From: Anaerolineae bacterium | GTDB lineage: Bacteria; Chloroflexota; Anaerolineae; Aggregatilineales; UBA3940 | NCBI GenBank assembly: GCA_034435015.1 | Contig: DAOTYH010000062.1 | Coordinates: forward strand, 1,219 to 65,218 | Length of the DNA: 64,000 nt | Reading direction: 5' to 3' | In this document: piece by piece, positions 1,273 to 20,176 of the stretch | How the letters are laid out: every line of letters starts with the position of its first letter | Position numbering within the stretch: position 1 is the first letter of the stretch | The notes under the pieces: model-generated | Seen by the model: only the letters and a program-made list of their open reading frames with translations | The model's database searches: none | Told to the model about the DNA's origin: nothing | Made by a program: the position numbers and the translations under genes

Positions 1273-2343
1273 TTAAGGCCGAATGGGGTACCGGCCATAC
1301 TTCTCAGCGGCACGCACCATTGCATCAATATTTTCTACCGGCGTCCCGCCGCTTAGGCAACCTGAGGCGCTGAGGATGTAGCCGCCTCCCGGCGCCCCCT
1401 CTTGGATCATCCGGCGGCATTCTTCTTCGACATCTTCGGGCGTGCCGTTGAGCAGGGTGTCTAACTGGGCCATGTTGCCGATCAAGCACAGCTTATCACC
1501 AACCCGCTGTTTAGCCTCTGCGACGCTGATGTCCGGTGCGAAGTGCAGGCCGTCTATGCCCGTGTCGGGGTACATATCAAGGATATGCCCGACCCGGTCG
1601 CAGTTGTGAGCCAGCACGATGACGCCCTTAGGCATCCCTTCAACCAGCCGCTTGATATACTGCCCAGAAAACTCCCACCAGAGCTTAGGCGAAAGCTGGG
1701 CGCCGCTGTCATCAGAAAACATGATCTGCACCATCGTACCGCCAACCACTTCGTATTGCTTGTTGATGTAGCGGATACAGGTCTCTGTAATGATCTCCAT
1801 CATCGCGTGTACGCCTTCCGGGTCCGTGATGACCTCGGTCATCAGGTCAGTTGCCCCGCGTACCAATAGGGCTACGTCGAAAGGTGCATGCAGGAAACCC
1901 GCCGTGACCTCGTACCCATACTCCGGAAGCTTTTGGGCCAGCCAAGCGAAGTTTTCTAACACCATAGGCATACGGCCGTCTTTTTCAGGGTCGGGCACTT
2001 TGAGTTTCGGCACATCCCTGCGCAGATCATGAACAACAGGGTTGGCATGCGGCGTCTGACCCGGCAGGGTGACGATCTCGCACCCCAGCGCGGACGCCTC
2101 TACCGTTGATCCAGACGAGCCGCGGAAGCCGGGGAAATATTGCATATCGGGGTAGCGCTCGCCGTAGAACTCCACCATGGCGCGGAGTTGCATTTCGCGA
2201 TCCTCGTACCATTTGGAGGCATCTACACCGTAGTATTTGCTGAAGAAGGCGCTCGTCAGCCATGGGCAGGCCGGCACTCTATCTGGCTCGCCGCGCCGTG
2301 CTACCGTCAGGAAGCGCTCTCTTGGTGTCATCTCTTTGACCAT
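1273..2343 (-). CDS. uroporphyrinogen decarboxylase (URO-D / MtaA-CmuA) family protein
   Basis: ATG at 2343 is preceded by AAGGAG with a 7-nt spacer. The ORF-track GTG at 2379 would overlap the upstream gene. Sequence blocks (EPDRVPACPW, FPGFRGSSGSTVEASALGCEI, MFSDDSGAQLSP) and the roughly 356-aa length are typical of the URO-D fold. It is the last gene of the operon. Confidence 0.7.
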   Translation of the reverse strand: MVKEMTPRERFLTVARRGEPDRVPACPWLTSAFFSKYYGVDASKWYEDREMQLRAMVEFYGERYPDMQYFPGFRGSSGSTVEASALGCEIVTLPGQTPHANPVVHDLRRDVPKLKVPDPEKDGRMPMVLENFAWLAQKLPEYGYEVTAGFLHAPFDVALLVRGATDLMTEVITDPEGVHAMMEIITETCIRYINKQYEVVGGTMVQIMFSDDSGAQLSPKLWWEFSGQYIKRLVEGMPKGVIVLAHNCDRVGHILDMYPDTGIDGLHFAPDISVAEAKQRVGDKLCLIGNMAQLDTLLNGTPEDVEEECRRMIQEGAPGGGYILSASGCLSGGTPVENIDAMVRAAEKYGRYPIRP

Positions 2344-2371
2344 ATTGATCTCCTTATCAGCCGATGAGGGC

Positions 2372-3526
2372 TTATTCACCTAGACGCTCAACCATTGCCC
2401 GGAAGTGCCGGCTGCTCTCTACCAGATCGGGGCCATGCCGGTGGAGATTGCCTGCCACTAGAAAGACAGCATCCGGCCCGTAGAAGTCCCGCATCTCTTC
2501 AAAGAACTCCGGACGCACCCCGCCGCCCGGCGAGGGCAAGTTGGGCTTGATGTCCCCCATAGGCACACGTGTTCCTTCTGCCGCCAAGCGGCATTCCTCC
2601 TGAGGCGGCGCAAACCGCCCCTCGTAGTGGGGGAAGATGGAAATATCTGCTCCCATCAGCCGTGAGAGTTGTCCATGTAACACATAGGGTGAGATACCAA
2701 ACTCAGGAGTGCGCCGGTATGTACCCAGAAAACCCGGATGAAACATAATAGGCAGACCAACGGCGTCATCTTCAGCGAGCATGCGTATCATGTCCAGCCC
2801 GCTGAAGGCAGGCATCAGCATAAGGCCATCTGCACCCGCCTCTTTGGCAAAGCGAACCTTCGCCAAGAGTTTCTCCATTGGCCCGCTAATGCATGGAAAA
2901 TACAAGCAGTGGTAACCCGTCTGGTGATTGGCCCTGGCAATGGCTTCCACACAACGGACAACGCGCTCCTCAAACGGGCAGAAAGCCTGATCGGACAACC
3001 CATGGTCATCCTTGATGATGTCAATGCCTCCCAGTGCACACTGATAGGCCATCTCGGCAAGCTGTTGTGGAGACTGCCCCATCGGCTTGAGGGCAGTGCT
3101 GGTCAGAGGACGCGAAGAGACACCTAGAAGTTCACGAATGCCCTTCCGTCCAAAGCGCGGTCCCTTGAACGCCGCCGTTAGACTAGGCGGCAGGTCAAGA
3201 GACTCCAGTCGGACTCCCGGCGTGAAGCTGATGTTACCAAAAACCACGTTTAGGAACTGGGGCAACTCATAGCCTGTGCTCTCAGCGGCATAGGAGATCA
3301 AAACCTCGTAACTGCCGTCTGGGAGCGGCACGAAAGTCTCAATCCAGCCCACCAAGTTGTCACGTAACAGGCCGGGCGCAAGAAGCTCATAAGGGAACTC
3401 GACTGTCTGTTCCACACAGATAAACTCAGCGATTCGGCGTGCATCGGCCTCGTTTAACCCATGCAGGGTATAGCGCACCCGAAGACGTTCACCCGAAAAA
3501 GTAAGTTCAGGGTTATCGTACTGCAT
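2372..3526 (-). CDS. RuBisCO large-subunit-like protein (form IV RLP), not a carboxylase
   Basis: 384 aa. The block ALKPMGQSPQQLAEMAYQCALGGIDIIKDDH aligns by eye with the RbcL block [32 protein letters not shown]. The equivalents of K175 and K201 are kept, while K177 becomes M and E204 becomes H. MFHPGFLG aligns with HIHRAMHA. No small-subunit or PRK gene is nearby. Confidence 0.85.
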   Translation of the reverse strand: MQYDNPELTFSGERLRVRYTLHGLNEADARRIAEFICVEQTVEFPYELLAPGLLRDNLVGWIETFVPLPDGSYEVLISYAAESTGYELPQFLNVVFGNISFTPGVRLESLDLPPSLTAAFKGPRFGRKGIRELLGVSSRPLTSTALKPMGQSPQQLAEMAYQCALGGIDIIKDDHGLSDQAFCPFEERVVRCVEAIARANHQTGYHCLYFPCISGPMEKLLAKVRFAKEAGADGLMLMPAFSGLDMIRMLAEDDAVGLPIMFHPGFLGTYRRTPEFGISPYVLHGQLSRLMGADISIFPHYEGRFAPPQEECRLAAEGTRVPMGDIKPNLPSPGGGVRPEFFEEMRDFYGPDAVFLVAGNLHRHGPDLVESSRHFRAMVERLGE

Positions 3527-3605
3527 CCAATTGTCCTTTAGTCACACCTCGCTAAACCCGAAACCTCCAAGAGACTTGTTGCTTCGTTGAGAAGGGACGG
3601 CCCCC

Positions 3606-4844
3606 TCAGATGTCACTCTCTCCAGCAAAGCGGTTGAAGCGTGCGATCAGCCACTCACTGGTCTCACGTACCAGCGGGATACAGACACCATGCAAGTGAC
3701 GCTCTGTGCTGTATTGTTTCGCCTGCTCAGGGTCGCTTAGGTCAAGTTGAAGCAGATCACGGCAATTAGTGGTGCTCTTCTGAGCCTGATACCAGCGGAC
3801 CAGCTCAGCGGCCATAGCGCGCGCCGCATAGCGCGGCGGCTTGTATTGGGGGTTGCTGTGGGCTTCGCGTGCGCCAATAACCATCAGCCCCCCTATAAGG
3901 GAGCCGCAGGTCAGGCCCTGCCTTGCCATGCCGCCGATAAAGGAGGTTGCGGCACGGTGCGCAACCTCAGAGCTGTACCCCTCCGCCTCGGCAAAGGCGG
4001 TGAAGACAGACTCGGCACAGGAGTACCCCTGTCTGAAAAGCTCCTCTGCATAGGCAGGGATGTCAATCGGGGTGAAGGGTGCTTGCCCCTCACTTCCTGT
4101 GATCTTCAGGCAGGCTGATAATGACCCGCACAGGGCGTTGTCACGCTGGTCAAGGAGGGTGTGCGGCTTGAAATCTGGGGCGGATATGTGCTGACGCAAT
4201 GCGCCCGTCAGGGCTTCTGTCAGTATGGGGGTACAATCAAAACCGCGCACACCCAGTGCCAGCGCACGCTTCAGGTCCTCTTCCGGAAGAACAGCCGCCG
4301 TCCTCAGCAACAAGGGGGCAGACAGCCCCTCACACAGGGCGGCCAGACGATCAAACGGGACAGCGTCCCCCCACGACAGTAGCAGTGCATCCGGGCCGGC
4401 GCTTTCGACAAAGGCGCGGGCACGCACTGGATCAACCGCCTCTGCCTGACCCAGAAGGACGGCAACAGCCAAGCCGTTTTCACGGGCAAGCCTGCCAGAT
4501 TCCTGCACAAAGTCTGTCTCATGATTCTCGATCAGGCAGGCACAAAATCCCAGCCGGATCGCCTCACCCACCTGTTCGAGGTTTTGCACCCCTGCCAGCA
4601 TCAGGCAGATTGGCACGCGGGCCATACGCGCCTGTTCACGCAAGGCATCGGACAGACGGCGTACCTCGCCTGTAGAGATGCCTCTGAACCTGTCCGTACG
4701 CACAACCAGCACAAGCGGCGCTTCCTGCTTGCCAGCCTGTGTCATCAACGCTTGCGCGGCCAGCAGATCATCAACACTGGCCAGCACCAACCCGTAGGCC
4801 TTCTCCGTAGCGGCAGTAAGCAAAGCCGGCAGGGAACCTAGCAT
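3606..4844 (-). CDS. fusion protein: class-II aldolase-like (FBA/GatY fold, apparently zinc-less) N-domain + C_GCAxxG_C_C C-domain
   Basis: 412 aa. ATG at 4844 has GGAGG upstream, inside the end of the preceding gene. The N-terminal ~240 aa align by eye with GatY/KbaY (details in the findings). The C-terminal ~150 aa carry the C_GCAxxG_C_C pattern: GYSCAESVF, LTCGSLIGG, TNCRDLL, HGVCIPL. Confidence 0.6.
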   Translation of the reverse strand: MLGSLPALLTAATEKAYGLVLASVDDLLAAQALMTQAGKQEAPLVLVVRTDRFRGISTGEVRRLSDALREQARMARVPICLMLAGVQNLEQVGEAIRLGFCACLIENHETDFVQESGRLARENGLAVAVLLGQAEAVDPVRARAFVESAGPDALLLSWGDAVPFDRLAALCEGLSAPLLLRTAAVLPEEDLKRALALGVRGFDCTPILTEALTGALRQHISAPDFKPHTLLDQRDNALCGSLSACLKITGSEGQAPFTPIDIPAYAEELFRQGYSCAESVFTAFAEAEGYSSEVAHRAATSFIGGMARQGLTCGSLIGGLMVIGAREAHSNPQYKPPRYAARAMAAELVRWYQAQKSTTNCRDLLQLDLSDPEQAKQYSTERHLHGVCIPLVRETSEWLIARFNRFAGESDI

Positions 4845-4847
4845 GGC

Positions 4848-6284
4848 CTAAGCCTCCATCGGCCTGAGGTAAGGCCGGTAAATTTGCTTTCCGATAGGAC
4901 GCATCCCCAGCCAAGCCGCCAATTCCAACCCCGCCCCGCTGAGGTCGCCGTAAGCCAGCGGATAGTGATGCTGGTAACCGCTAGCCATTAAAGTCTCGAT
5001 CAAGTCTGGCACAGTGACAGCTTCGTCGTTCAAGCGCAGGTCACAGAACCAACCCCGGCTCCCTACGTAGCTGGACTTGCTGTTGTCCAGCCTGCCGCCC
5101 AGCACAAGAACGCGGTCAAAGTCTGTGGTGAACCCGAAGACGGTAGCCTGCCCCGGCTTCAGCACAAGATCGTTGTGCAGGCCAATGCCATCTCCGCCAT
5201 AGCCGTCAAAAAGCCAGAGAGACTGCATCCTGACGCCCTTCTCATCCGCCAATGAGGGAGCAGTCGGGCCGCAGTGCCAGAGCAGTATACTTTCGTCCGT
5301 CTCATCCACAGCGGAAAGGTCCATCAGGGTGACGACCGTACCGCCGCTCATGTAGCGCAAAGCCAGCATCCCGGCGGCGCTTGTGACATCCCCTTCGCAG
5401 GCGGCGATCAGGCCGTCTTCATTGAGCTGGCCCAGCACACTGCACACGGCTAGATGATAGTCTGACTGGAAACGCGGCCAGCAACTTATTGCCAACGCAT
5501 CGAGAGAACGCTCCTCAGCCAGTTGCCGATAGGTCAGCAGTACACGTCCCGCTCTATCTAATGCAGGAGCTTGTCCTTCGTCGAAGGTGGCGGCCCCTCC
5601 GCGGATACGTTCAGAAGCCTCCATTGCTGGTTCGCTAGGCTGGGCTTCAGCCCGCCCGATGACCTCATCAAATTCAATGTGAGCCACGCGGATACCCAGA
5701 CGCTCATAGAGCACACGCTCGTCAATAATGAGGTTGTCAAAGCCGGGAGCTACCCCGCCTACCAGCCCAATGCGTGCCCCTTGCAGATTGATGAGTGCCG
5801 TGAGCGCCTTCACCGTGAGTGCCAGCCGCTCATCAAAGAGCGGTTGACCGGGCCGCCCGTAAAACCACTTGACGGGCTTGCGATAGCCGCTCAGGAAGGT
5901 CTTGGCGATGCTGTTGTACATATTAGCGGCAGTGAAGCTGTTAAGCGGCAGGCCGCCTTTGGGCGCAGGCGGCCCTTCGGGCACAGCCCAGATACCCAGC
6001 CGGGCATCCAGCGTGGTGAACTCGTAGATGAACTCACCGGGGCCAAAGGAGCTGGTCTGTAGCAGGATGAAATCCGCCCCCCACTCCTTCAGCTCGGCGG
6101 CGGCGCGGCGTGCGTCTTCGATATTCCACATGCCGCCAGTGATCACATGCAGGTCAAAACCAAGATGTTCAGCGAGTGCGTTGAGCCGCTCGGCGCTGTC
6201 GGCAAACTGCGCCGCCTTGTCACCTAGAAAAGGTGTACACATCACGCCGGTCAGGCCTACCTTGAGCCGTCGAGTTTCGCGCAT
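4848..6284 (-). CDS. L-fucose/L-arabinose isomerase-like sugar isomerase family protein
   Basis: ATG at 6284 has GGAG 7 nt upstream. The ORF-track start at 6311 is TTG. The ~478-aa layout fits the family: an N-terminal Rossmann-like region (LKVGLTGVM...DFILLQTSSFG) and a C-terminal YQHHYPLAYGD block. It resembles COG2407-type FucI-like proteins. Confidence 0.6.
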   Translation of the reverse strand: MRETRRLKVGLTGVMCTPFLGDKAAQFADSAERLNALAEHLGFDLHVITGGMWNIEDARRAAAELKEWGADFILLQTSSFGPGEFIYEFTTLDARLGIWAVPEGPPAPKGGLPLNSFTAANMYNSIAKTFLSGYRKPVKWFYGRPGQPLFDERLALTVKALTALINLQGARIGLVGGVAPGFDNLIIDERVLYERLGIRVAHIEFDEVIGRAEAQPSEPAMEASERIRGGAATFDEGQAPALDRAGRVLLTYRQLAEERSLDALAISCWPRFQSDYHLAVCSVLGQLNEDGLIAACEGDVTSAAGMLALRYMSGGTVVTLMDLSAVDETDESILLWHCGPTAPSLADEKGVRMQSLWLFDGYGGDGIGLHNDLVLKPGQATVFGFTTDFDRVLVLGGRLDNSKSSYVGSRGWFCDLRLNDEAVTVPDLIETLMASGYQHHYPLAYGDLSGAGLELAAWLGMRPIGKQIYRPYLRPMEA

Positions 6285-6323
6285 AACACACTCCAAATGA
6301 CAACTAAGCAAACCGCTATAAGC

Positions 6324-7991
6324 TCAACCCACCGGCCAGCGGAAGTATGGCCCCTGCGCAGGCCAATCCCAGAAAGGCTGGCTGGCAGAGTCCAGCGCGT
6401 ACAGCGAGAGTGAAAAGCCAGCCATCTCCTGTGTGGTGAAGAAGGAGCCTACCACACTGCCGGCGACCTCCAGCCCATGTGCCCGCAAGGCATGATGGAC
6501 ACGCCTGTTGAGGATATGCAATTCCATCAGCGAAGTGCCGCCTGCACCATTCAGGAAGCTGAGTACACGTTTTTCCAACAGCGGGTTGAGGTCTTCCAGC
6601 AGTCGCTGAATAAGCATGTCAATCAGGGCGTCGGCATGCAGATGCGCCCCGCGATAGACCCCTGCCTCTCCATGCACGCCTGCCCCTACCTCAATCTGGC
6701 CGGGCGGCATCTCAAACATGGGTTGTCCAGAGACAGGATGGGTAGGCGGTCGTGCCGCCACCATCAGGGTAGCAGTACGTTCATTAGCGGCCCGCATCAG
6801 GGCGGCAACATCAGCCAGCGGAAGCCCCTGCTCAGCGGCGGCGCCTCCGATCTTGAGGCTGAAGAGTAATCCGCCCAACCCGCGCCGCTCCTCCAGACGG
6901 GAGCGGGGCGCGGTAGCAATATCGTCCCCTAGTAATACACCTTCGACTACAATACCTTCCTGGCTAGCCCTTCGAAGGGCCAGCCGGGCGTTAAGCACGT
7001 CCCCAGTATGGTTGGAGATCAACAGCACAACGCCCGCGCCGCGATCCGCTCGACGGATCGCCTCCGCAATGCGAACACCAGGGGCACAGGTGAAGATCGG
7101 GCCGTAAACATCGGCATCAAGCAGGCCCGGCCCAACAAACCCTCCCATCGAGGGGGTGTGACCGCCGCCGTGTCCGATGGCCAGCGCAGCCTTTCCGGCG
7201 GCCTTGGGCTGTGCCCTCACCAGGATGTCAGGAGGGACATAATGGAGCAGGGCCGGATAAGTAAGAGCCATGCCCTCTAATTCTTCAGCGATCAGGTTGG
7301 CAGGCTGGTTGATGAACTTACCGGGCGGCGGAAGTTGTTCTGCCTGTCCGGAAGGGAGGGAAGGGATCGCTGTGCCGACCGCTAGATCATGCAAGGTTTC
7401 AACAAGGATGGCCAGCGAAGTCGCACCTGCATCCTGATAGCCCGCTGAGCGCTCGCCAAGGAAGCGGGCGCGGCCATGCATGGCCGCCATCCCGCGTGTC
7501 AACTCAGCGCCTTGACGCGCCGCGATAGCCGCTACTGCCAGCGCACTGGCTGGCGGCTCCAGAGAGTGCTCTGCCAGAGCCTGCGCCGCCGGCGCCAAGG
7601 CGTCAACAAGCGTCTTCTGGCCGGGCTGGGCACCACCTATCTGTTGGACAGCCTCCAAGCCGCCCGCAAAAAAGGCGGCCAGATCAGCGCTGTTGAGTTG
7701 TTGTTTGCCGCGCAGTAGCACGCCGCCTTCTGCAAAGAAGGCCGCCAGCAGGGGGCCAATAGCCCCGCCTGCCGCAACAGCCAGCGCTTCTGAGGCTGTA
7801 TCAAGGAGGGCGCCTATATCAGCACAACCCGCCTGCACGGCCAGCTCGGCGGCCGCAAAGGCACGGCTGACTGTGTAGCCGTGATCGCCGTCCCCCACTT
7901 CCGCGTCAAGCGCATTGAGGGCGTCACGTTCTTGCTCGAAGCGTGCACGCAATAGCGAGAAGAAGCCCCTCAGTGCATCCAGATCAAGCAC
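6324..7991 (-). CDS. dihydroxyacetone-kinase-family ketose kinase, fused with permuted domain order (DhaL N-terminal, DhaK C-terminal)
   Basis: 555 aa. The N-terminal ~200 aa carry the DhaL signature LDAEVGDGDHGYT. The C-terminal ~330 aa carry DhaK blocks: ALAIGHGGGHTPSMGGFVGPGLLDADVYGPIFTCAP, LLISNHTGDVLNARLA, ERRGLGGLLFSLKIGGAAAE and GAGVHGEAG. The GTG start overlaps the upstream stop by 8 nt (GTGCTTGA). Confidence 0.8.
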   Translation of the reverse strand: MLDLDALRGFFSLLRARFEQERDALNALDAEVGDGDHGYTVSRAFAAAELAVQAGCADIGALLDTASEALAVAAGGAIGPLLAAFFAEGGVLLRGKQQLNSADLAAFFAGGLEAVQQIGGAQPGQKTLVDALAPAAQALAEHSLEPPASALAVAAIAARQGAELTRGMAAMHGRARFLGERSAGYQDAGATSLAILVETLHDLAVGTAIPSLPSGQAEQLPPPGKFINQPANLIAEELEGMALTYPALLHYVPPDILVRAQPKAAGKAALAIGHGGGHTPSMGGFVGPGLLDADVYGPIFTCAPGVRIAEAIRRADRGAGVVLLISNHTGDVLNARLALRRASQEGIVVEGVLLGDDIATAPRSRLEERRGLGGLLFSLKIGGAAAEQGLPLADVAALMRAANERTATLMVAARPPTHPVSGQPMFEMPPGQIEVGAGVHGEAGVYRGAHLHADALIDMLIQRLLEDLNPLLEKRVLSFLNGAGGTSLMELHILNRRVHHALRAHGLEVAGSVVGSFFTTQEMAGFSLSLYALDSASQPFWDWPAQGPYFRWPVG

Positions 7992-8844
7992 CGGCTACCT
8001 CCCGCCGGACAAAATCCGCACCGGCACGCGCCCCTGCATCCAGATCATCCCCAAGAGGACGCCAAATCGAGAGGGCCGGGCCGACCTCTTCGCCCGGCTG
8101 TACAAATGACTCAATGGTCAGCCAGCCACGGTAGCCCGCCGCATCGAGCGCCTCACGCACACTGGCCCATGGAATATGTCCCTGCCCCGGCATCTTGCGG
8201 TTGTTCTCCGAGCAATGGAAGTGGCCAATCTGATCACCCGCCAGCCGGATCGCTTTGCTGATGTCATCTTCTTCAATGTTCAAATGGAAAGTGTCGAGGT
8301 GTAATTTAATGGCGGGACTGTTCACTTCGGCCAACAGGGCTAGACCCTGTTCAACCGTGTTGATCAAATACCCTTCGAAGCGGTTGAGCACCTCAAGGCA
8401 AAGCGTCACGCCCAGACTGGCGGCGATCTGTCCAACCTCACGCAATGCCTTGATGCAACGTTTGCGGGCCTCAGCCTGCTCTGCGTAGGGCGGAAAGACA
8501 CCCCAAGCGGCGTACGTCACCCCGCCCAGCACGGGACTGCCGAGAGCCGCACATCCTTCCAGACAGGCCCGCAAATGGGCTGTACCTGCTGTGCGTATGC
8601 CGCTGTCGGGGCTGGTAATGTCGGTCGCGGGGCCAAGGCCAGTGCCGCAGGTGGCGTGCATTCCCTGTTCGTCCAATGCGGCCCGCAGACGCGGAAAATC
8701 CATTGTTGCCGGCGACAGCAAAGGAAACTCTGCCCCGTCAAAGCCGGCCTGCCGTGCCCGTGCGATCAACGGCACTAGATCGTCTGACCATTGCCGTTGC
8801 CAATAAGAAAGATGTATCCCAATTGGGCGGGGCATCGTCAGCAC
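7984..8844 (-). CDS. ketose 3-epimerase-like sugar-phosphate isomerase/epimerase (xylose-isomerase-like TIM barrel)
   Basis: 286 aa. It is collinear by eye with D-tagatose/D-psicose 3-epimerases: IGIHLSYW, LCLEVLNRFE, HLDTFHLNIEE, GHFHCSENNRKMPGQGHIPW, TIESF. These blocks hold the E/D/H/E metal-ligand positions. The start is GTG at 8844 or ATG at 8835. Confidence 0.75.
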   Translation of the reverse strand: MLTMPRPIGIHLSYWQRQWSDDLVPLIARARQAGFDGAEFPLLSPATMDFPRLRAALDEQGMHATCGTGLGPATDITSPDSGIRTAGTAHLRACLEGCAALGSPVLGGVTYAAWGVFPPYAEQAEARKRCIKALREVGQIAASLGVTLCLEVLNRFEGYLINTVEQGLALLAEVNSPAIKLHLDTFHLNIEEDDISKAIRLAGDQIGHFHCSENNRKMPGQGHIPWASVREALDAAGYRGWLTIESFVQPGEEVGPALSIWRPLGDDLDAGARAGADFVRREVAGA

Positions 8845-8852
8845 CTTTCAGG

Positions 8853-8890
8853 GAGGCCCTTCCTCCCCCACTGGCGCGAGGAAGGGCCTC
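8853..8890 (-). other. intra-operon RNA hairpin (13-bp perfect stem, 12-nt loop)
   Basis: GAGGCCCTTCCTC (8853-8865) and GAGGAAGGGCCTC (8878-8890) are exact reverse complements. They sit in the 63-nt gap between the EIIC stop and the epimerase start. No U-run follows on the transcribed strand. Confidence 0.55.
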
Positions 8891-8907
8891 AGGCTATTGT
8901 GGACGAG

Positions 8908-10194
8908 CTAGAAGCCGAGCAGTTTGGCAATCCCTCCTACCACAATGGCGATCAACGAGAAGTCGTTGCCGCCAAAGAGCTGGATGAAATTGCCCGCCGA
9001 GTTGGAGATGAGGGGGAGTGAGAACGCCTGCAGTACGATCAACAACACACCGCCAACAGCCGCCGCAATGATCGCTCCACGCCGCCCCCCTGTGGCGTTC
9101 GCTACCACTGCCGCCGGGCCAACATCAAAGAAGGCCGCAACAACCAGCGGGAACAGCACATAGCTGTAGCCTGCCAAGTTGAAGATCACGAGCGTGATCA
9201 GCGAGGTGATCATTGCGATTGGGAAGCCGATAGCCAGCGCGTTCTGGCCGTAAGGGAAGACCATCGGGCAGTCCAGAGCAGGCACAGCCTCTGGCACGAT
9301 AGCCTTGGCAATGCCATGGAAGGCCGGGATGATCTCAGCCAGCATCATGCGGACACCGGTCAGCAAGACGACCAGTGCGGCACCAAAGCTGATACCCTTG
9401 AAGAGCGTCCAGAACACCCAGATCCACACCTGCCCGCCGGTATAGGTGTCAGCCGCCCACTGCGGGCCGGCCAGCAGACCGAAGATCAAGTAGAGCAGGA
9501 ACATGATCAGCGAGGTTGTGATCACCATTTCCTTGAGGAAACCAAGCCCCTTGGGAACCTCAATATCCTCAGTAGACTTGTTGGGGTTGCCAAGCAGTTT
9601 GCCCAGCAGAGCACCGATCAACACATGGATGGTGGTGGTGTGGCCAATGCTGAACTGCCTGTCGCCCGTCAGCTTGAAGATGAAGGGGGCGATTATGGCC
9701 GGCAGGACGGTAGAGATGATGCCGAGGACGATACTGCCGACAATAACCAAAGGTACACCGGTGATGCGGCCGCCGTCCGCCAGCGCCGCCGCCACCATGA
9801 ACGCATTCCAGAACAGGATATGCCCTGTTAGGAAGACGTACTTGAGCGGCGTTACGCGGGCGAGGATCACATTCACCAAGAAGCCAAAGACCATGATCAG
9901 CACGACTTCAATGCCCCGCTCAGCTAGGAAGGCAGTGAAGTCGGCCACAGCGGCTGTTCCCCCGCCACTGCCTTGATAGACCTGTGCAAAATGCTCTGAG
10001 ATCGGCGTGATAGCCGCAACCAGCAGGTCTACTGCGGCAAAAAGGATGAGCACACCTGCCATCGTCTTGATCGTGCCGCTGATGACCTCATTGACCGGCT
10101 TGCGCTGGAACAGCAAGCCTAGCAGGGCTACAATGCCCAGCATAAAGGTCGGCAGGATGCGCGGGACAAGGGTGAAGATAATATTGATGTCCAT
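8908..10194 (-). CDS. PTS ascorbate-family EIIC permease (SgaT/UlaA-like)
   Basis: 428 aa and polytopic. ATG at 10194 follows AAAGGAGGA. The N-terminus (ILPTFMLGIVALLGLLFQRKP...ISGTIKTMAGVLILFAA) and overall hydropathy fit the UlaA/SgaT family. The cognate EIIB and EIIA are in the same operon. Confidence 0.75.
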   Translation of the reverse strand: MDINIIFTLVPRILPTFMLGIVALLGLLFQRKPVNEVISGTIKTMAGVLILFAAVDLLVAAITPISEHFAQVYQGSGGGTAAVADFTAFLAERGIEVVLIMVFGFLVNVILARVTPLKYVFLTGHILFWNAFMVAAALADGGRITGVPLVIVGSIVLGIISTVLPAIIAPFIFKLTGDRQFSIGHTTTIHVLIGALLGKLLGNPNKSTEDIEVPKGLGFLKEMVITTSLIMFLLYLIFGLLAGPQWAADTYTGGQVWIWVFWTLFKGISFGAALVVLLTGVRMMLAEIIPAFHGIAKAIVPEAVPALDCPMVFPYGQNALAIGFPIAMITSLITLVIFNLAGYSYVLFPLVVAAFFDVGPAAVVANATGGRRGAIIAAAVGGVLLIVLQAFSLPLISNSAGNFIQLFGGNDFSLIAIVVGGIAKLLGF

Positions 10195-10236
10195 AGCATT
10201 CCTCCTTTAGGGTTAGTACAGCAACTACGATGAGAA

Positions 10237-12411
10237 CTACTCACCCGCCTGCCAGAAAATGTCAACGACGAGGCTTGCCTCACTGCGGGGGGCACAGCGG
10301 ACAAGCAGGTTATCCCCCTCCAGAGACCAGTCTGCAGGCCCGCTCTGGCTGGGGAACATCTCTACCCGTTCTGGCATGCGGCCATTCCGTTGGATACACA
10401 GCACACAGCTTGTATCCTCTCTCAAATAGTTTGCAATCAGCAGAGTACTGCGGCCCGACCCTTCCAATAAATGGTGGTCGAGGGTACGCTCTCCCTGTTG
10501 CTGATAGCTGATGCAAACACGGGGCCGGATCGCAAGGCGCTCCAGCACAACGGCCAGCAGGCTTTTGAGCCAGGCCCCCTCCGGTTTCAGATAACCGGCG
10601 TCGGCTCTGGTGGCAATATACAGGCCTGCGCCTTTGCCGCGCTGAGCCAATGTGATAGCAGGCCACCCATCCGTAAAGCGGGCCAGCACCTCCGTATTTG
10701 GCTCAGGCTGGATTAGATCACGATGGAATGCGCCCTGCACTGCCTGCCCCTCCAGATCAAGGATCGGCGTGCCAAGTGCGTCAGGTTCGATCTGGGCCAG
10801 CCCGAAAGCTTCACGCAAGCCGGGGATCGGCAGATGATGATGATACCAGCCTGCTTCGGTCAGGGCGGCACAACGCGCAAAGGCAATCAGCAGACCCCCG
10901 CTCTCTACATAAGCCAGCAGTGCCGCCGCCTCCTCAAGGTTGAGGAGAGAAACCAGCGGCAGTACGATAACCCGGTAGAACTTGATCTCTGGAAGTTTCA
11001 GGTGGGGTGGAGTAATGAAGTCCACGCTGAAGCCCTGCTCCCAAAGGGCGCGGTAAGCACCACGCTGGGCGGCAAACAATATCTCTTCCTGACCGATACT
11101 GCTGAAGAAGATCGCATTAGGCTTCGATTCAAGCAGAGCAACCTCGCCTTGCGGCACATGTGCCGTGAGCAGATGCTCTTTGTTATGCTGGATATAGCGG
11201 CCCAACCCAGTTGCCGCTTCGAGGCGCGGCGTAGGTTGCCCGTCTAGATCAACCAGTGCGCCCCAGTGCAACGGCTGATAATCCCACTCACGCCATGGCA
11301 TGTAGAGCAGCATCTTGGCATCATGTCCCAGCGCCTCAAAGCCGTTGCGCCAGATGTCTGTTGGGCTGGTGTTGTATTCCGGCCCCAGTACCCAGCCGCC
11401 AATGGGGCCTGACTCAACTTCATGCAACCAGAAATCGCGTCCACCCCAACGGCTGACACTCCGCCCATGATCGAGGAAGATCGAGGTGTGTTCAGGGCGG
11501 GACACTATCTTGGCTCCACTGCCGGGGTAGAGATCATAGCCAATGTGATCTACCTGCTTAGCGATCTGCCACTGATCTAGGCCGGTAAGAGCGCCAAAAC
11601 GGTCATATCCTTTGAAGTTAAAGGTGTTGATCGAGGTTGGATGATCAGGATCATACTGGCGGATCAGATCATGCTGGCGGCGTGCAAACTCTGCAAAAGC
11701 CTCCTGCCAGAAGAGCCGCCAGTCCAGCCAGCGCGTCACGCCTGACCACGTGTCCGGTGTTGCTTCAGGAGGATCAACCTCCTCCCAATCATTATACCAG
11801 AAGGCTGTTGTACTCCACATCCAAGCGGCATTAAGCGCCTCAAGCGTGTGATATTTGGCCTGTACCCACTCACGAAAGCGTGCCTTGCTGTGATCGCAGT
11901 AACAGTAGATGTCAAGGCGGCCCTTCTCCCGCGTGGGGTTAAAGGGAAAGCCGATCTCGTTGCTGATCTGCCAGCCAAAGTGATTCTCATGTCTAACAGC
12001 AAATTGAGCCAGAGCCGCCAGATAGCGGTCACTAGCCTCTAGGAAGCCCGGATGATGGATGCAGGCCCAATGATAGGAGGCTGCCAGCGGATAACGCTCC
12101 CCCCGGCTGGACAGGATCACCGCATCAGGATACTTACGCGCCAGCCAGAGCGGCGGGCAGGAGGCGCCGGTGCTCAGCAACACATCCAGACCGAAGGCCC
12201 CGGCACGGCGGTAAAAGGAGTCGAGGACCTCCAAGCGAATGCGGCCCTCCTGCGGTTCGAGGCGATCCCACGAACCATGTACATCCCCAATGCGGATCAG
12301 GTTCATGCCTGCCGCCTGCATCTGCCGCAGGTCTTCCTCCCACTCCGACTCCGGGAAGATCAAAGGGGAGTAAGATGCACCGTAGCGCATCACCGCCCGT
12401 GAGCCTGACAT
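10237..12411 (-). CDS. glycoside hydrolase family 42 (beta-galactosidase-like)
   Basis: 724 aa. The GH42-type N-terminus reads YGASYSPLIF..WEEDLRQMQAAGMNLIRIG..SWDRLEPQEG. The acid/base motif is GWQISNEIG and the candidate nucleophile region is FWLHEVESGPIGGW. Trimerisation-domain-sized and C-terminal beta-domain-sized regions follow. Confidence 0.8.
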   Translation of the reverse strand: MSGSRAVMRYGASYSPLIFPESEWEEDLRQMQAAGMNLIRIGDVHGSWDRLEPQEGRIRLEVLDSFYRRAGAFGLDVLLSTGASCPPLWLARKYPDAVILSSRGERYPLAASYHWACIHHPGFLEASDRYLAALAQFAVRHENHFGWQISNEIGFPFNPTREKGRLDIYCYCDHSKARFREWVQAKYHTLEALNAAWMWSTTAFWYNDWEEVDPPEATPDTWSGVTRWLDWRLFWQEAFAEFARRQHDLIRQYDPDHPTSINTFNFKGYDRFGALTGLDQWQIAKQVDHIGYDLYPGSGAKIVSRPEHTSIFLDHGRSVSRWGGRDFWLHEVESGPIGGWVLGPEYNTSPTDIWRNGFEALGHDAKMLLYMPWREWDYQPLHWGALVDLDGQPTPRLEAATGLGRYIQHNKEHLLTAHVPQGEVALLESKPNAIFFSSIGQEEILFAAQRGAYRALWEQGFSVDFITPPHLKLPEIKFYRVIVLPLVSLLNLEEAAALLAYVESGGLLIAFARCAALTEAGWYHHHLPIPGLREAFGLAQIEPDALGTPILDLEGQAVQGAFHRDLIQPEPNTEVLARFTDGWPAITLAQRGKGAGLYIATRADAGYLKPEGAWLKSLLAVVLERLAIRPRVCISYQQQGERTLDHHLLEGSGRSTLLIANYLREDTSCVLCIQRNGRMPERVEMFPSQSGPADWSLEGDNLLVRCAPRSEASLVVDIFWQAGE

Positions 12412-12416
12412 AGAGA

Positions 12417-12704
12417 CTACTTCTTGCCTTCTAGCAGAGGACGAATGGCCGGCAGGACCTTCTCCACCACCTCGGTTTTACTGAGGAAGTTGTTGACGAC
12501 CACCACCGGCTGAGGGATGTCCTTAAACGCTGTAGAGAGGTCTTTTGAGGTGACTACAACATCGAAGCGCTCACCTTTAGCGGTAGTCATATCTGTGCAG
12601 AAGGTCTCAGCCTTAAGTCCGCTCTCCTTGAGGACTTCATCTATTTTGAGCTTCAAGATCATGCTTGACCCAAGGCCAAAGCCACATACAACCATGATGC
12701 GCAT
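12417..12704 (-). CDS. PTS EIIB component (ascorbate/lactose-type, SgaB-like)
   Basis: ATG at 12704 is preceded by AGGAGG with a 6-nt spacer. The ORF-track start at 12731 is TTG. MRIMVVCGFGLGSSMILK contains the phospho-Cys loop typical of PTS_IIB. Confidence 0.8.
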   Translation of the reverse strand: MRIMVVCGFGLGSSMILKLKIDEVLKESGLKAETFCTDMTTAKGERFDVVVTSKDLSTAFKDIPQPVVVVNNFLSKTEVVEKVLPAIRPLLEGKK

Positions 12705-12820
12705 CTGTATCCTCCTGATGGGATAGGCCAATAGCGCGGGAGGGGTCGAGAAGAAAGCCCTTTATTTTAAGGTGTACTGCCCCAACACAGCCAGGGGCTT
12801 GATGCTAGGGACAGGATGCC

Positions 12821-13279
12821 TCAGGAGTTAGCAATGTCAAACTGCTGGATGATGTCTACAACTTCTTTAACACTCTTAGCGGCACTCAGTTTCTGACGGG
12901 TAGTTTCTTCTCCAAGAAAGCCCGCCAGTTGAGTCAACATGCTAATATGGCTGGTCTTGTCTGGGTTACCGAAGGCAATCACCAGCGAGACAGGATCATT
13001 CTCTTGAGAGCCAAACTCGACTGGCTTCGCCAGCGTAACCAGTGATACACCCACGGCCAGCACACCATCCTCTGGACGCGCATGAGGCAATGCAAGACCA
13101 GGTGCCAGTACCATATAAGGCCCGACGCGGTAAACAGCATCTATCATAGCCTGAACATACCGAGGCTCACACTTGCCAGCCTTGACAAGCGGCTCTCCCG
13201 CCGCACGGATAGCCTCTTCCCAGTTCTTGGCGGGAACTTTTAGCCGGATCATATCCGGTGTCAGGGTTTCACTGAGCAT
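12821..13279 (-). CDS. PTS EIIA component (EIIA-2, mannitol/fructose/ascorbate type)
   Basis: 152 aa. PGLALPHARPEDGV matches the phospho-His loop of PTS_EIIA_2, and the size is typical of SgaA/UlaC. Confidence 0.8.
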   Translation of the reverse strand: MLSETLTPDMIRLKVPAKNWEEAIRAAGEPLVKAGKCEPRYVQAMIDAVYRVGPYMVLAPGLALPHARPEDGVLAVGVSLVTLAKPVEFGSQENDPVSLVIAFGNPDKTSHISMLTQLAGFLGEETTRQKLSAAKSVKEVVDIIQQFDIANS

Positions 13280-13288
13280 TTTCTTTCT

Positions 13289-14254
13289 TTAGTCCTCTTT
13301 CAGAAGTTTCAGTGCTGTCAGGGAGTCCGTGATCAGAGTATTGAGAAGCCTGCCGCGCATAGCGGCACGCAGTACTTCTACCTTTTCGGGGCCGCCTGCT
13401 ACCACCACACTGCGAGGCACATGCCGCAGGTCTTCAAGGCTGATGGCAATGGCCCGCTCGCAGATCGGATGCTGGATATACTCTCCCTGACTGTCAAAGA
13501 ATTGGCCTAGCATATCCCCCACTGCGCCACGCGCCCGCAGGTCCTCTAGATCATCATCATTCAAATAGCCGTGCAGGTAAAGCAGGGCCGACCGATCAAC
13601 CGGGCCAACGCTCTGCAGGACCATATCAGCCCGACGGGCTAGCTCCAGCGCCGCCGCGATGGGCGGCTCCCGCAGGAGAGCTTCGCGCATCTCCGGGCTG
13701 GAAACAATGGTCGGCGCATACAGGTAAGCCGCTTTGCTCTCGGTCAGCTCGGCTATACGCGAAGTAATGTTGTAATCGGTGAAGCCGCCAGTACTCCCTA
13801 CGCCTCCGGCAACCTCAACAAACTGACACCCGATTGTCTGCGGAGGGCCGAATACCTGTGGAATATAGGAAAGAGTGCGCCCCTGCCCAATCCCGACGAT
13901 CATATCTGGCCGCAGGTTGCTGGTCAGCCATAGAACGGCGCCCTGAGCCAGTGTGCGGTAAAGCGGCTCTCCCGGCTCAGCCTCAGTAACGACCAGCGCC
14001 TCCCTCAAACCGTATCTACGGCATAGCTCCTGCTCCAAGCCAAAGTGGATCGGCTCCGGCGTGTTAATCCTGATCTCTACAATACCCAACTCGCGGGCCT
14101 GTTGAAGCAGACGATTCACCTTAACGCGGGAGAGTTCAAGCAGGTCACCGATCTCCTGCTGAGTCAGGCCGTCAATGTAATACATCCAGGCCGCCTGAGC
14201 CAGCAGGCGGGTCAGCGCTGAATTGGGGGTGGTACGTGCCTGACTACGGATCAT
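13289..14254 (-). CDS. SorC/CggR/DeoR-type sugar-binding transcriptional regulator
   Basis: 321 aa. The N-terminal HTH reads LTQQEIGDLLELSRVKVNRLLQQARELGIVEI. A sugar-phosphate-binding domain follows (IVGIGQGRTL..., VVVAGGPEKVEVLRAAM). It is the first gene of the operon. Confidence 0.8.
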   Translation of the reverse strand: MIRSQARTTPNSALTRLLAQAAWMYYIDGLTQQEIGDLLELSRVKVNRLLQQARELGIVEIRINTPEPIHFGLEQELCRRYGLREALVVTEAEPGEPLYRTLAQGAVLWLTSNLRPDMIVGIGQGRTLSYIPQVFGPPQTIGCQFVEVAGGVGSTGGFTDYNITSRIAELTESKAAYLYAPTIVSSPEMREALLREPPIAAALELARRADMVLQSVGPVDRSALLYLHGYLNDDDLEDLRARGAVGDMLGQFFDSQGEYIQHPICERAIAISLEDLRHVPRSVVVAGGPEKVEVLRAAMRGRLLNTLITDSLTALKLLKED

Positions 14255-14320
14255 GTGTTCACGAGGTTTTACAATTGTTCACACTGCTCCCATTCTCAGG
14301 CAGGATAGCCTGTATTCACA

Positions 14321-14334
14321 GTGACAAATGTCAC
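14321..14334. promoter_or_regulatory. candidate operator: perfect palindrome GTGACA-AA-TGTCAC
   Basis: The 14-bp palindrome lies 67-80 nt upstream of the SorC-regulator start, in the divergent intergenic region. The half-site-like TTCACA(C/G)TG also occurs twice nearby (about 14275 and 14315). Confidence 0.3.
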
Positions 14335-14383
14335 CTGCAAAGCATGACATTATGAACAGGTCTCTCCTGTTTTCTAACCAGAT

Positions 14384-14413
14384 TTGACACCTACGCCAAC
14401 TTCTGCCATAACT
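14384..14413 (+). promoter_or_regulatory. sigma-70-like promoter for the M23 hydrolase gene (TTGACA-N18-ATAACT)
   Basis: TTGACA is at 14384-14389 and ATAACT at 14408-14413, about 45 nt upstream of the ATG at 14459. The ORF-track start at 14384 is the TTG of this -35 box. Confidence 0.4.
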
Positions 14414-14458
14414 GCACTGTGTCGTGTGGAAGGCCGTGAATTTGAAGGAGACAGGCGA

Positions 14459-16267: not shown

Positions 16268-16285
16268 ACCAAGATGAAAGCGCAA

Positions 16286-16324
16286 GGGTGGACAGCCTCT
16301 ATCACAAAGACTGCCCACCCTTTT
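16286..16324. terminator. hairpin terminator between convergent genes
   Basis: GGGTGGACAG (16286-16295) pairs with CTGCCCACCC (16311-16320) with one mismatch, followed by TTTT at 16321-16324. It lies between the M23 gene (+) and rtcB (-). Confidence 0.5.
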
Positions 16325-16361
16325 CACTACCCGCATATAGCCGGCGGCTCGTGCCGCACAA

Positions 16362-17810: not shown

Positions 17811-17835
17811 AGGCTTCTCTCCTCTACCTCACTAC

Positions 17836-18261
17836 CTACACATCAAAGACAATGACCGTCTCATAGCCCTTATCAGTCTGTCGGATGACAAGGTTATGAT
17901 AGGTGACCGCTTTGATGTACTTGTCGAAACGGCCATTTGTCCTGCCAGTCACCTCAGCATCTAACCTGAAATCAGCGGCACGCTGTACAGCAATGTGGGT
18001 AAACACAACCCGCTGATCTTCAATGAGGTACAATAATTCCGTCAGCCAGTCCACCAGCAGGATTTCCCAGTCCGGGGCATGTAAAGAGATGGTTCTGTGA
18101 ATGACAGCCCCTGCTGGGGAAGCCTCTCCCCCGATCAAGCTGACCATGCCCCGTGCGGCATTCTCAAACAGCGCACGCAGGTCCTCCCCCCGTACCCGCA
18201 GTGCCCAGTCCGCAGTATGCTCAATTTCCTCCCATGCAGGGAGAGAGGGTGTATCAGCCAT
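17836..18261 (-). CDS. archease (RtcB activator)
   Basis: ATG at 18261 is preceded by GGAGAA. WEEIEHTADWALRVRG, IKAVTYHNL and the ~141-aa size are typical of archease. It lies 25 nt upstream of rtcB on the same strand. Confidence 0.85.
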   Translation of the reverse strand: MADTPSLPAWEEIEHTADWALRVRGEDLRALFENAARGMVSLIGGEASPAGAVIHRTISLHAPDWEILLVDWLTELLYLIEDQRVVFTHIAVQRAADFRLDAEVTGRTNGRFDKYIKAVTYHNLVIRQTDKGYETVIVFDV

Positions 18262-18337
18262 AGCAATTCTCCAGTATCGGGAGATTTGGGAAATGATCAC
18301 CTATCTCTATTGAGTATACACAGAGTATACACAAGGT

Positions 18338-20161: not shown

Positions 20162-20176
20162 ACCCTGCTGAGAGAC

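Follow-up and report, generated by a model that had tools for sequence, protein, structure and literature searches.

To our knowledge, only a handful of functions are known for RuBisCO-like proteins (RLPs), and most clades of form IV have no assigned one. Among the closest described systems are the 5'-methylthioadenosine (MTA)-isoprenoid and dihydroxyacetone phosphate (DHAP) shunts of Rhodospirillum rubrum and Rhodopseudomonas palustris. In R. palustris, RLP1 isomerises 5-methylthioribulose-1-phosphate in vivo and in vitro, alongside a cupin methylsulfurylase, and the route through RLP and cupin runs parallel to a route through the aldolase Ald2, both starting from one ketose-1-phosphate (PMC5893883). 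The DHAP shunt is also reported to let Escherichia coli use 5'-deoxynucleosides as growth substrates (PMC10986504, PMC12632272). Here, an RLP-bearing operon of an Anaerolineae bacterium (Chloroflexota) was analysed, which occupies positions 1273 to 14254 on the minus strand of a stretch of 64,000 nucleotides of contig DAOTYH010000062.1, hereafter referred to as the window. The operon very probably represents a genuine, co-selected pathway to which no function has been assigned. As a putative RLP-dependent pathway of ketose-phosphate isomerisation in which neither the RLP subclade nor the partner set has an assigned function, the locus is a good candidate for a new pathway. Neither this cluster nor an RLP linked to URO-D or Dak enzymes was described in the open-access literature searched, although absence from that literature is not proof.

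The operon consists of the following genes, in order of transcription:

13289 to 14254, minus strand: SorC/DeoR-LsrR-type, sugar-phosphate-sensing regulator, operon gene 1 (PF04198, 6.8e-67, plus an N-terminal helix-turn-helix)
12821 to 13279, minus strand: phosphotransferase system (PTS) component EIIA, EIIA_2 ascorbate/mannitol type (PF00359, 4.8e-34)
12417 to 12731, minus strand: PTS component EIIB (PF02302, 4.5e-13; orthologues of 95-97 aa)
10237 to 12411, minus strand: divergent GH42 glycosidase, between EIIB and EIIC (PF02449, 6.9e-61, and PF08532, GH42M)
8908 to 10194, minus strand: PTS component EIIC, Ula/SgaT (EIIC-GAT) family (PF03611, 3.8e-102)
7984 to 8844, minus strand: ketose 3-epimerase-like TIM barrel, D-psicose/D-tagatose 3-epimerase type (PF01261, AP_endonuc_2, 1.5e-43)
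6324 to 7991, minus strand: permuted DhaL(N)-DhaK(C) fusion kinase (Dak2 at residues 31-201, Dak1 at residues 239-547)
4848 to 6311, minus strand: candidate aldose-ketose isomerase, SftI-like, 487 aa (NF048012 SftI, 1.5e-51)
3606 to 4844, minus strand: degenerate class II aldolase fold (residues 1-255; PF01116, 9.7e-12) fused to a Cys-rich C_GCAxxG_C_C domain (residues 274-399; PF09719, 1.7e-24)
2372 to 3526, minus strand: form IV RLP of an unassigned subclade (PF00016, RuBisCO_large, 1.7e-23)
1273 to 2379, minus strand: URO-D-superfamily protein of MtaA/CmuA type with a His-Cys-Cys zinc site (PF01208, 3.1e-58)

These eleven open reading frames (ORFs) are consecutive, with gaps of 9, 89, 5, 42, 63, -8, 12, 3, 79 and -8 nt in order of transcription. 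The coordinates and gaps of the ORF list thereby match the head-to-tail run of minus-strand genes, spaced by -8 to 89 nt, that had been described in the original prediction. Three of the start codons, GTG for URO-D (1273-2379) and TTG for both the isomerase (4848-6311) and EIIB (12417-12731), stem from mechanical ORF calling; judging from the lengths of the orthologues, they probably lie about 9 to 12 codons too far upstream, the likely true starts being 2343, 6284 and 12704. The two -8 overlaps and some of the gap sizes are therefore not firm: a start at 2343 would abolish the overlap between RLP and URO-D, and the revised starts would widen two gaps.

As in the MTA-isoprenoid and DHAP shunts, the RLP has the motifs KDDH and ALKPxG, the pathway likely branches at a ketose-1-phosphate with an aldolase on the parallel arm, an enzyme of thiol chemistry comes after the RLP, and nucleoside-cleaving enzymes are encoded in the vicinity. 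However, the RLP of the window belongs to another clade and MtnA, MtnK, MtnP and the cupin are absent. The ketose-1-phosphate would be reached through an isomerase and then a Dak kinase, and not through a kinase or phosphorylase and then MtnA; the aldolase belongs to PF01116 whereas theirs belongs to PF00596; an MtaA-like zinc protein replaces the cupin; and the whole is coupled to a PTS, a GH42 glycosidase and a 3-epimerase. Routes for deoxy and rare sugars (L-fucose through FucI/K/A, D-arabinose through the Fuc enzymes, L-rhamnose, 5-deoxyribose through DrdK/I/A, and the sulfo-Embden-Meyerhof-Parnas pathway) follow a similar course from aldose to 2-ketose, ketose-1-phosphate and finally DHAP plus an aldehyde, and among named proteins the isomerase is closest to SftI, which acts on sulfoquinovose. 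In contrast to these routes, the kinase of the window is a permuted Dak fusion instead of an FGGY or PfkB enzyme, and its lineage combines a dead aldolase with an additional RLP/URO-D branch. The D-apiose and oxo-isoapionate pathways (OiaX and related) likewise place an RLP within a sugar-catabolic operon with a dedicated kinase, but the window has no DUF1537 kinase and its RLP is of another subclade (74 bits with the OiaX model, against a cut-off of 700). As originally stated, none of the partner sets of known RLPs (MtnA/K/P, cupin, DUF1537), nor UlaG, UlaD or UlaF, is encoded in the operon.

The principal evidence for a co-selected pathway comes from related loci. Contigs bearing RLP homologues of at least 60% identity provided nine loci including the window, the eight others being metagenomic. 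Their arrangements are as follows, with the identity of each RLP to that of the window:

Window, L165 (95%) and L081 (73%): full colinear string
L169 (60%): colinear, with an unfused aldolase and an appended HAD phosphatase
L168 (62%): RLP-URO-D placed in front of sorC-PTS-GH42-…
L082 (64%): string from sorC to the aldolase, divergent from RLP-URO-D
L085 (66%), L166 (63%) and L167 (61%): core without PTS and GH42, divergent from RLP-URO-D

The RLP-URO-D pair is divergent from the remaining genes in four loci (L082, L085, L166 and L167). The DhaL-DhaK kinase, the SftI-like isomerase and the RLP followed by URO-D are each found in all nine loci. The class II aldolase is found in eight, the ninth (L168) ending before the aldolase position, and the ketose 3-epimerase also in eight, being absent from L085; sorC is present in seven and the block of PTS and GH42 in six. 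All genes are under purifying selection, with ratios of nonsynonymous to synonymous substitution (dN/dS) of 0.00 to 0.29 against L165, and below 0.3 against L165 or L081. Recurrence in eight further loci and in four arrangements, together with this purifying selection, indicates that the cluster is more than a product of chance, and the conserved catabolic-type cluster without assigned function that had been predicted does recur in related loci. It is a modular cluster and not a fixed eleven-gene unit: a gene core is co-conserved across rearrangements, as expected from the original prediction, whereas the eleven genes as one unit are not, PTS and GH42 occurring in six of the nine loci. L085 is the one close relative among the matches listed in a metagenome scan with the subclade alignment.

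The RLP of the window is of form IV, with KDDH and not KDDE, K-P-M and not K-P-K, and H-P and not H-R, at positions that we take to follow the RuBisCO residue numbering. Its best matches in the PDB are RLPs, far ahead of true RuBisCOs. The best NCBIfam model is MtnW, at 216 bits against a cut-off of 409, and a second MtnW/YkrW model scores 177 against 514. The closest structure is 3QFW, an RLP of R. palustris (1e-71, 38% identity), with which the motifs KDDHGL(S/A)DQ, ALKPxG, HP, GAD…FP.Y.GRF and P.P.GG align. The sequence of 3QFW is 100% identical to P0241, a 368-aa R. palustris protein; since RLP2 of this organism is a separate entry of 452 aa (2QYG), 3QFW was taken to be RLP1, the DeepYkr enzyme.

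In a neighbour-joining tree with 100 bootstraps, support was 100/100 for the DeepYkr clade, 99/100 for the subclade of the window and 98/100 for the separation of this subclade and its sister clade from DeepYkr. The window RLP is 35-39% identical to seven DeepYkr-clade proteins including P0241, and lies outside the clade formed by the validated DeepYkr enzymes of R. rubrum and R. palustris. It was thus placed outside the assigned clades, across a split supported by 98-100/100 bootstraps, and its neighbours are unlike those of any assigned clade, in keeping with the uncharacterised route originally proposed. MtnA, MtnP, MtnK and a cupin methylsulfurylase were found neither in the operon nor in the eight other loci of the subclade.

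The sister clade, about 50% identical to the window RLP, was represented by 80 genome loci, none of which contains the partners of the window. Its conserved neighbour is a split transketolase (41 and 37 of the 80 loci); several loci hold bona fide MtnK and MtnA (500 and 413 bits, with cut-offs of 275 and 279, respectively), and a few a cupin. These loci (L001-L080, for example L019, L020, L037 and L071, with the RLP mostly at about 10001-11130) belong to Chloroflexota, Nitrospirota, Chromatiaceae, Spirochaetota and Bacillota, and several include a sugar ABC transporter. The sister clade looks like an undescribed route for methylthioribose (MTR) or 5-deoxyribose, in which a transketolase instead of a cupin would take the RLP product. 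At the 90% level, the window subclade and the sister clade differ at just two positions: G265 (HPG versus HPA), which adjoins the conserved H263, and H300 (FPHY versus FPNY), presumably located in loop 6. This two-position difference, together with descent and the conservation of motifs, argues for DeepYkr-type chemistry of the window RLP on a related ketose-1-phosphate. An RLP 58% identical to that of the window was observed in L084 (7246-17374), in the string EIIA-EIIB-EIIC(GAT)-RLP-cupin-ADH-OsmC-SorC-E1alpha/E1beta/E2, an independent link between an RLP and a Ula-type PTS, with a cupin and a 2-oxoacid-dehydrogenase-like complex.

The best PDB match of the URO-D-superfamily protein is the methylcobalamin:CoM methyltransferase MtaA (4AY7). 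It resembles the corrinoid methyltransferases MtaA, MtbA, MtsA and CmuA by its fold family, with MtaA as best match both structurally and by profile, and by the His-x-Cys…Cys zinc triad: its ligands H258-x-C260…C341 align with the HICG and PGC motifs of 4AY7, and an MtaA-like DRVP motif is found at the N-terminus. It differs from them by its scores, which at 124-151 bits are under the cut-offs of 235-244 (MtaA/CmuA NF004889, 151 against 244; TIGR01463, 124 against 235), by the lack of a B12-binding protein in the operon and by the location of its gene inside a sugar operon. A HemE identity was rejected because the hemE model (TIGR01464) scored 64.5 bits, far below its cut-off of 303, and the MtaA zinc motifs are present. 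The description of this protein as decarboxylase-like had to be abandoned for the same reasons, the MtaA/CmuA model giving 151 bits against 64 for hemE and the zinc ligands of MtaA being kept. Every orthologue down to 61% identity keeps H258, C260 and C341, while the group at 50-57% has no third Cys. The family is small and discrete, with about 55 clusters at 50% identity or above, followed by a drop to 39%; with a dN/dS of 0.04, the gene is among the most constrained of the operon. Demethylases acting on S-, O- and halide-linked methyl groups as well as a thiol-epoxide transferase are included in the URO-D superfamily (PMC10418091).

Besides the RLP-bearing loci (type A), URO-D orthologues 66-75% identical to that of the window occur in a second type of operon (type B), URO-D-ADH-ADH-GH42-(EamA)-isomerase-(ABC transporter: substrate-binding protein/permeases), where ADH stands for alcohol dehydrogenase and RLP, kinase and aldolase are missing:

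L171, positions 10001 to 21071: type B operon
L172, positions 10001 to 16835: type B operon
L173: type B operon
L174, positions 4474 to 15532: type B operon

The view of RLP and URO-D as an obligate chemical pair fails on these RLP-less operons. As a speculation, the two ADHs of type B might bring about the same shift of the carbonyl through a reduction followed by a re-oxidation. In a third architecture (type C), seen in L170 (1-21068), an orthologous sorC-EIIA-EIIB-GH42-EIIC block (55-61% identity) occurs together with an isomerase orthologue (64%). The URO-D homologue there is directly preceded by a 130-aa B12-binding_2 protein consisting of the cap domain only, and is followed by a bona fide MtnA; two more URO-D paralogues (three in total), a PNP_UDP_1 gene, an LsrK/XylB-like FGGY kinase and several Zn-ADHs are also present. 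URO-D, GH42 and the isomerase are a recurring triad, and the RLP is not the obligatory partner of URO-D. Identity within this triad is highest for URO-D (66-75%), GH42 and the isomerase reaching only 36-38%.

Other genes adjoining URO-D vary with the lineage. L165 has a nucleoside-hydrolase neighbour as in the window, plus an MFS transporter, and in L166 a PNP_UDP_1 gene, for which MTA phosphorylase models are best but below cut-off, lies right after URO-D. An S-adenosylmethionine-dependent methyltransferase (CMAS/UbiE-type) directly follows URO-D in L081 (13090-14130), L082 (12290-12958), L085 (12298-13026) and L167 (11214-11879), on the same strand in the first and convergent in the three others. 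Between RLP and URO-D of L081, at 11186-11941, two contiguous ORFs form one frame broken by a TGA codon (…IFTPC-TGA-VTCQQ…). This ORF matches the C-terminal half of GrdB, and the Pfam GRDB model ends exactly at the in-frame TGA, which is the selenocysteine position of GrdB, after which the frame continues; it is probably a short selenoprotein. A cluster with an MttB-family methyltransferase is located downstream within L081, and MttB-family clusters are also found near the operon of L172.

The aldolase-like protein was aligned with its orthologues and with the class II fructose-bisphosphate aldolase of Thermus aquaticus, and three motifs separate the lineages:

Asp-His motif: LMLAG in the window, L165 and L081; LHLDH in L085, L166, L167 and L169
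Second His motif: SWGDA in the window, L165 and L081; GNVHGAY in L085, L166, L167 and L169
Third His motif: LLLRTAA in the window, L165 and L081; LVLHGSS (LVLHGSSG) in L085, L166, L167 and L169

The window protein has lost the catalytic Asp and the three His zinc ligands of class II aldolases. Its lineage also shows loop deletions, and the fusion to the GCAxxG domain is confined to the window, L165 and L081. The zinc-less aldolase/GCAxxG fusion reported in the original prediction is hence real for these three loci, whereas four other lineages keep the catalytic motifs. The intact aldolases measure 282-287 aa, and with the ketose-bisphosphate aldolase model TIGR00167 (cut-off 215.6 bits) those of L167 and L169 score 220 and 201.6 bits, respectively. 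Since these relatives retain every catalytic motif, the zinc-less aldolase is, on this alignment, a derived state: aldol cleavage has been lost in this one lineage, which has kept the scaffold. Within the operon, dN/dS peaks at the degenerate domain (0.29 and 0.22), values that still indicate constraint, and the fused Cys-rich domain is under tight constraint, at 0.05-0.10. A decaying pseudogene was rejected on the basis of the 0.22-0.29 range and of a frame that is intact in three lineages.

The remaining enzymes are those expected to supply the substrate. Dihydroxyacetone kinases bind a carbonyl group, the His of DhaK forming a hemiaminal. Both domains and the catalytic residues of this family were found in the fusion kinase: its DhaK His, Asp and His motifs (GGGHTP, NHTGDVLN and GAGVHGE) align with DhaK of Lactococcus lactis (3CT4), and DhaL keeps GDGDHG. 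The order is L-K instead of K-L, and NF011049 matches in two stretches with 461 bits against a cut-off of 492. The conservation of the hemiaminal His and of the other catalytic residues fits a kinase that phosphorylates a hydroxymethyl group adjoining a carbonyl.

For the isomerase candidate no Pfam match was obtained, and its sole named relative is the sulfoquinovose isomerase SftI (NF048012), at 176 bits, under the cut-off of 700. Pfam and NCBIfam confirmed the gene families originally assigned to the operon, but the label 'FucI-like' given to this protein proved to be faint: a homologue matched Fucose_iso_C with an E value of 0.28, and a profile search of the PDB matched the L-arabinose isomerase 7CHL with 0.95, both non-significant, so that the SftI family is the solid anchor. 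Residues E306, D331, H346, H448 and H449 are invariant across 11 homologues, a pattern presumably like that of the metal ligands of AraA. Orthologues also occur in type B and type C loci. SftI itself has been validated by experiment as an aldose-ketose isomerase, and it also converts glucose 6-phosphate and fructose 6-phosphate into each other (PMC7491151).

The glycosidase is a GH42 member by its catalytic and trimerisation domains and by its acid/base and nucleophile Glu, and is probably cytoplasmic. Its best PDB matches are GH42 beta-galactosidases, but only at 8e-45, with the NE acid/base motif and the nucleophile Glu aligned, and no NCBIfam match was obtained. Its relationship to characterised beta-galactosidases is no more than distant, and 5XB7, which we take to be the arabinopyranosidase, is the least similar of the 15 GH42 structures that it matched. 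The metal-ligand motifs of the epimerase are visible by eye, and its score with the D-psicose 3-epimerase model NF051856 is 250.5 bits (cut-off 300), against 43 bits for sugar-phosphate 3-epimerases.

The uptake genes recall the L-ascorbate (Ula/Sga) regulon, from which they share EIIA, EIIB and EIIC of the Ula family, an EIIC above the ascorbate-IIC cut-off (NF006919, 417 bits against 380) and a 3-epimerase in the TIM-barrel superfamily of UlaE. In contrast, EIIA and EIIB remain below the ascorbate cut-offs (127 against 187 bits and 37 against 138 bits, respectively), the epimerase scores far higher with models of free-ketose epimerases (250 bits) than with those of sugar-phosphate epimerases (43 bits), and UlaG, UlaD and UlaF are lacking. 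An ascorbate regulon was rejected, since none of the eleven products is a UlaG lactonase, a UlaD decarboxylase or a UlaF epimerase. The histidine motif ALPHARPE is seen in the translation of EIIA, the phosphorylatable cysteine of EIIB lies within MRIMVVCGFGLGSS, and EIIC is among the most constrained proteins (dN/dS 0.025). The SorC regulator scored under the cut-offs of the NCBIfam DeoR and LsrR models.

Around the operon and elsewhere in the window, the following features were recorded:

14255 to 14383, no strand: divergent intergenic region of 129 nt upstream of sorC, with one sigma-70-like site
1186 to 1227, no strand: hairpin between the convergent URO-D and nucleoside-hydrolase genes, with an 11-bp perfect stem (AGTCCCTCTCC / GGAGAGGGACT) and a 20-nt loop
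298 to 1167, plus strand: nucleoside hydrolase of inosine-uridine type, a possible accessory, convergent with URO-D (PF01156, 1.8e-38)
31479 to 33275, minus strand: general PTS Enzyme I, with the N, mobile and C domains of PEP-utilisers all present (4.8e-117)

Both boundaries of the original prediction, the divergent region and the hairpin, were found. The hairpin has no T-tract, however, and the terminator scan made no call there, nor did it find an intrinsic terminator 3' of URO-D. The promoter-like sigma-70 site at 14376-14349 on the minus strand matches the consensus at 9 of 12 positions and is a consensus match only. A direct repeat TTCACA(C/G)TG (TTCACACTG / TTCACAGTG) lies upstream of sorC at 14278-14286 and 14315-14323, with a spacing of 37 nt; it could be an operator, or a 9-mer occurring twice by chance. 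Promoter and terminator scans of the 79-nt gap ahead of the RLP gene gave nothing, and an Rfam scan of the window returned zero RNA families. The Enzyme I encoded elsewhere in the window means that the EII proteins of the operon can be energised. On the minus strand at 46353-50180, a second xylose-isomerase-like TIM barrel (49179-50180) adjoins an FAD oxidoreductase (47831-49141) and a 446-aa protein without Pfam match (46353-47693); these genes may form another small sugar-modifying cluster.

Taken as a whole, the locus can be read as a SorC-regulated, modular operon for the catabolism of a sugar supplied, at least in part, in glycosidic form, with a specific flow that we favour only tentatively. 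The GH42 enzyme would free an aldose inside the cell, the isomerase would convert it into a 2-ketose and the epimerase would invert C3. The Dak-type kinase would then bind the carbonyl and phosphorylate the adjacent C1 hydroxyl, giving a ketose-1-phosphate, while the Ula-type PTS may supply the same or a related phospho-sugar directly. Two fates are envisaged for the ketose-1-phosphate. The first is aldol cleavage to DHAP and an aldehyde, which would be intact in the relatives and inactivated in the lineage of the window. The second is a 1,3-type isomerisation by the RLP, which would move the carbonyl towards the far end of the chain; the MtaA-like zinc enzyme would then act on a terminal methyl, thio or ether substituent, like the cupin methylsulfurylase in the MTA-isoprenoid shunt. 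The fused Cys-rich GCAxxG domain may assist the URO-D step, and in L081 the GrdB-like putative selenoprotein may do likewise. Of the enzymes of this flow, GH42, DhaL-DhaK, the isomerase candidate, the RLP and URO-D keep their catalytic motifs, and the epimerase, judged by eye, appears to do so too. The proposed flow would map one-to-one onto the pair of MTA shunts of R. palustris, and it fits the nucleoside-cleaving enzymes beside URO-D in separate lineages, the GCAxxG fusion next to the RLP and the GrdB-like ORF of L081.

Several points weigh against this flow, its weakest links being the identity of the sugar and the reaction of URO-D. URO-D orthologues occur in type B operons without RLP or kinase, which means that URO-D cannot depend on the RLP product as such. 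Methyl transfer of MtaA type normally requires a corrinoid protein, and none is encoded in the window. The roles of GH42 and of the Ula-type PTS do not follow from an MTA-like scheme. Because the intact aldolase orthologues match ketose-bisphosphate aldolase models, the intermediate could be a bisphosphate instead of a 1-monophosphate, and because SftI also isomerises glucose 6-phosphate and fructose 6-phosphate (PMC7491151), the isomerase could act on a phospho-sugar. Lastly, no validated enzyme shares more than 35-39% identity with the RLP. A bolder version of the flow, which seems unlikely, is an undescribed route for a glycosidically bound sugar with a terminal heteroatom-methyl group (methylthio-, methylseleno-, arseno- or O-methyl-). 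The new RLP subclade would shift the carbonyl beside the substituted carbon, the MtaA-like zinc enzyme would remove or transfer the substituent, and Cys/Sec redox proteins would help.

Of the other explanations, the one that survives best is the salvage of a by-product, for which there is some chance, albeit a small one. In this case, the isomerase, the Dak kinase, the aldolase, the RLP and URO-D would form a variant of the MTA/5'-deoxyadenosine DHAP and isoprenoid shunts for 5-substituted ribose derived from nucleosides, and PTS, GH42 and epimerase would be an independent galactoside module. The five core genes do map one-to-one onto MtnP/MtnA, Ald2, RLP1 and the cupin of R. palustris, and L085, L166 and L167 hold the core without PTS or GH42. 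In addition, a nucleoside hydrolase or MTA phosphorylase-like enzyme adjoins URO-D, MtnK and MtnA are neighbours in the sister RLP clade, and E. coli is reported to grow on 5'-deoxynucleosides via the DHAP shunt (PMC10986504, PMC12632272). However, the association of GH42 and isomerase with URO-D orthologues in three architectures is hard to call a coincidence, and L170 has the orthologous PTS/GH42 block beside MtnA, a purine nucleoside phosphorylase-type gene and URO-D paralogues. In the lineage of the window, moreover, a single gene string places PTS and GH42 between sorC and the core, and MTR, being ribo-configured, needs no epimerase.

The catabolism of a methylated sugar appears less probable again. 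GH42 would release an O-methylated or otherwise methylated sugar of galactose or arabinose type, URO-D would be a demethylase resembling methyltransferase I, and the isomerase, epimerase, kinase, aldolase and RLP would funnel the ketose into central metabolism. This possibility accounts for the conservation of the URO-D-GH42-isomerase triad in types A, B and C, for the position of URO-D as its most conserved member and for the membership of URO-D in the MtaA/CmuA family with a zinc site; the B12-binding_2 protein immediately upstream of the L170 URO-D homologue and the MttB-family methyltransferase clusters near the operons of L081 and L172 also favour it. Yet neither the window nor those type A and B loci that were read contain a corrinoid protein, methyltransferase II or activase, and the B12-binding_2 protein of L170 is a cap domain only, of 130 aa. 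A plain, demethylated sugar would furthermore leave the coupling of RLP to URO-D in nine of nine loci unexplained, and corrinoid-dependent demethylation of sugars was not found in the literature searched.

It is improbable that the operon encodes an ordinary galactoside or arabinoside pathway of tagatose type, with the RLP-URO-D pair as a functionally unrelated neighbour. GH42, isomerase, 3-epimerase, kinase and ketose-phosphate aldolase would suffice for a rare-sugar route and four loci have the RLP-URO-D pair set apart as a divergent unit, but this pair adjoins the kinase-isomerase-aldolase genes in all nine loci despite four arrangements. The aldolase of the window lineage is also dead while RLP and URO-D are strongly constrained, from which it follows that the flux must bypass aldol cleavage. 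The flow of the original prediction, in which a PTS-imported glycoside or ketose is epimerised, isomerised and phosphorylated and then processed by RLP enolate chemistry with a decarboxylase-like URO-D, is very improbable: the gene order and families are as described, decarboxylating RLPs exist and there is a weak OiaX match (74 bits against 700), but the RLP is DeepYkr-like and not OiaX-like, and URO-D fits MtaA better than hemE (64 bits against a cut-off of 303), bears the zinc ligands and the DRVP motif of MtaA and has orthologues functioning in RLP-less operons.

Under the RLP-dependent ketose-1-phosphate flow favoured here, the cluster supplies a specific enzyme set for one of the many RLP clades without assigned function, and this clade is tied by descent to the methylthioribulose-1-phosphate isomerases. 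In this set, the RLP and the zinc-bearing URO-D protein would use up the substrate that the isomerase and the Dak kinase produce. With its fusion to a GCAxxG domain, the dead aldolase offers a clear case of a pathway branch that has been shut while its scaffold was kept. If the flow is true, carbonyl migration by RLPs would be extended from the salvage of by-products to the catabolism of growth substrates, and a first role would be given to the discrete MtaA-like family found in sugar operons. Should the sugar carry a terminal heteroatom-methyl group, the RLP would have a new function, and the URO-D superfamily an activity that is novel or independent of corrinoids.

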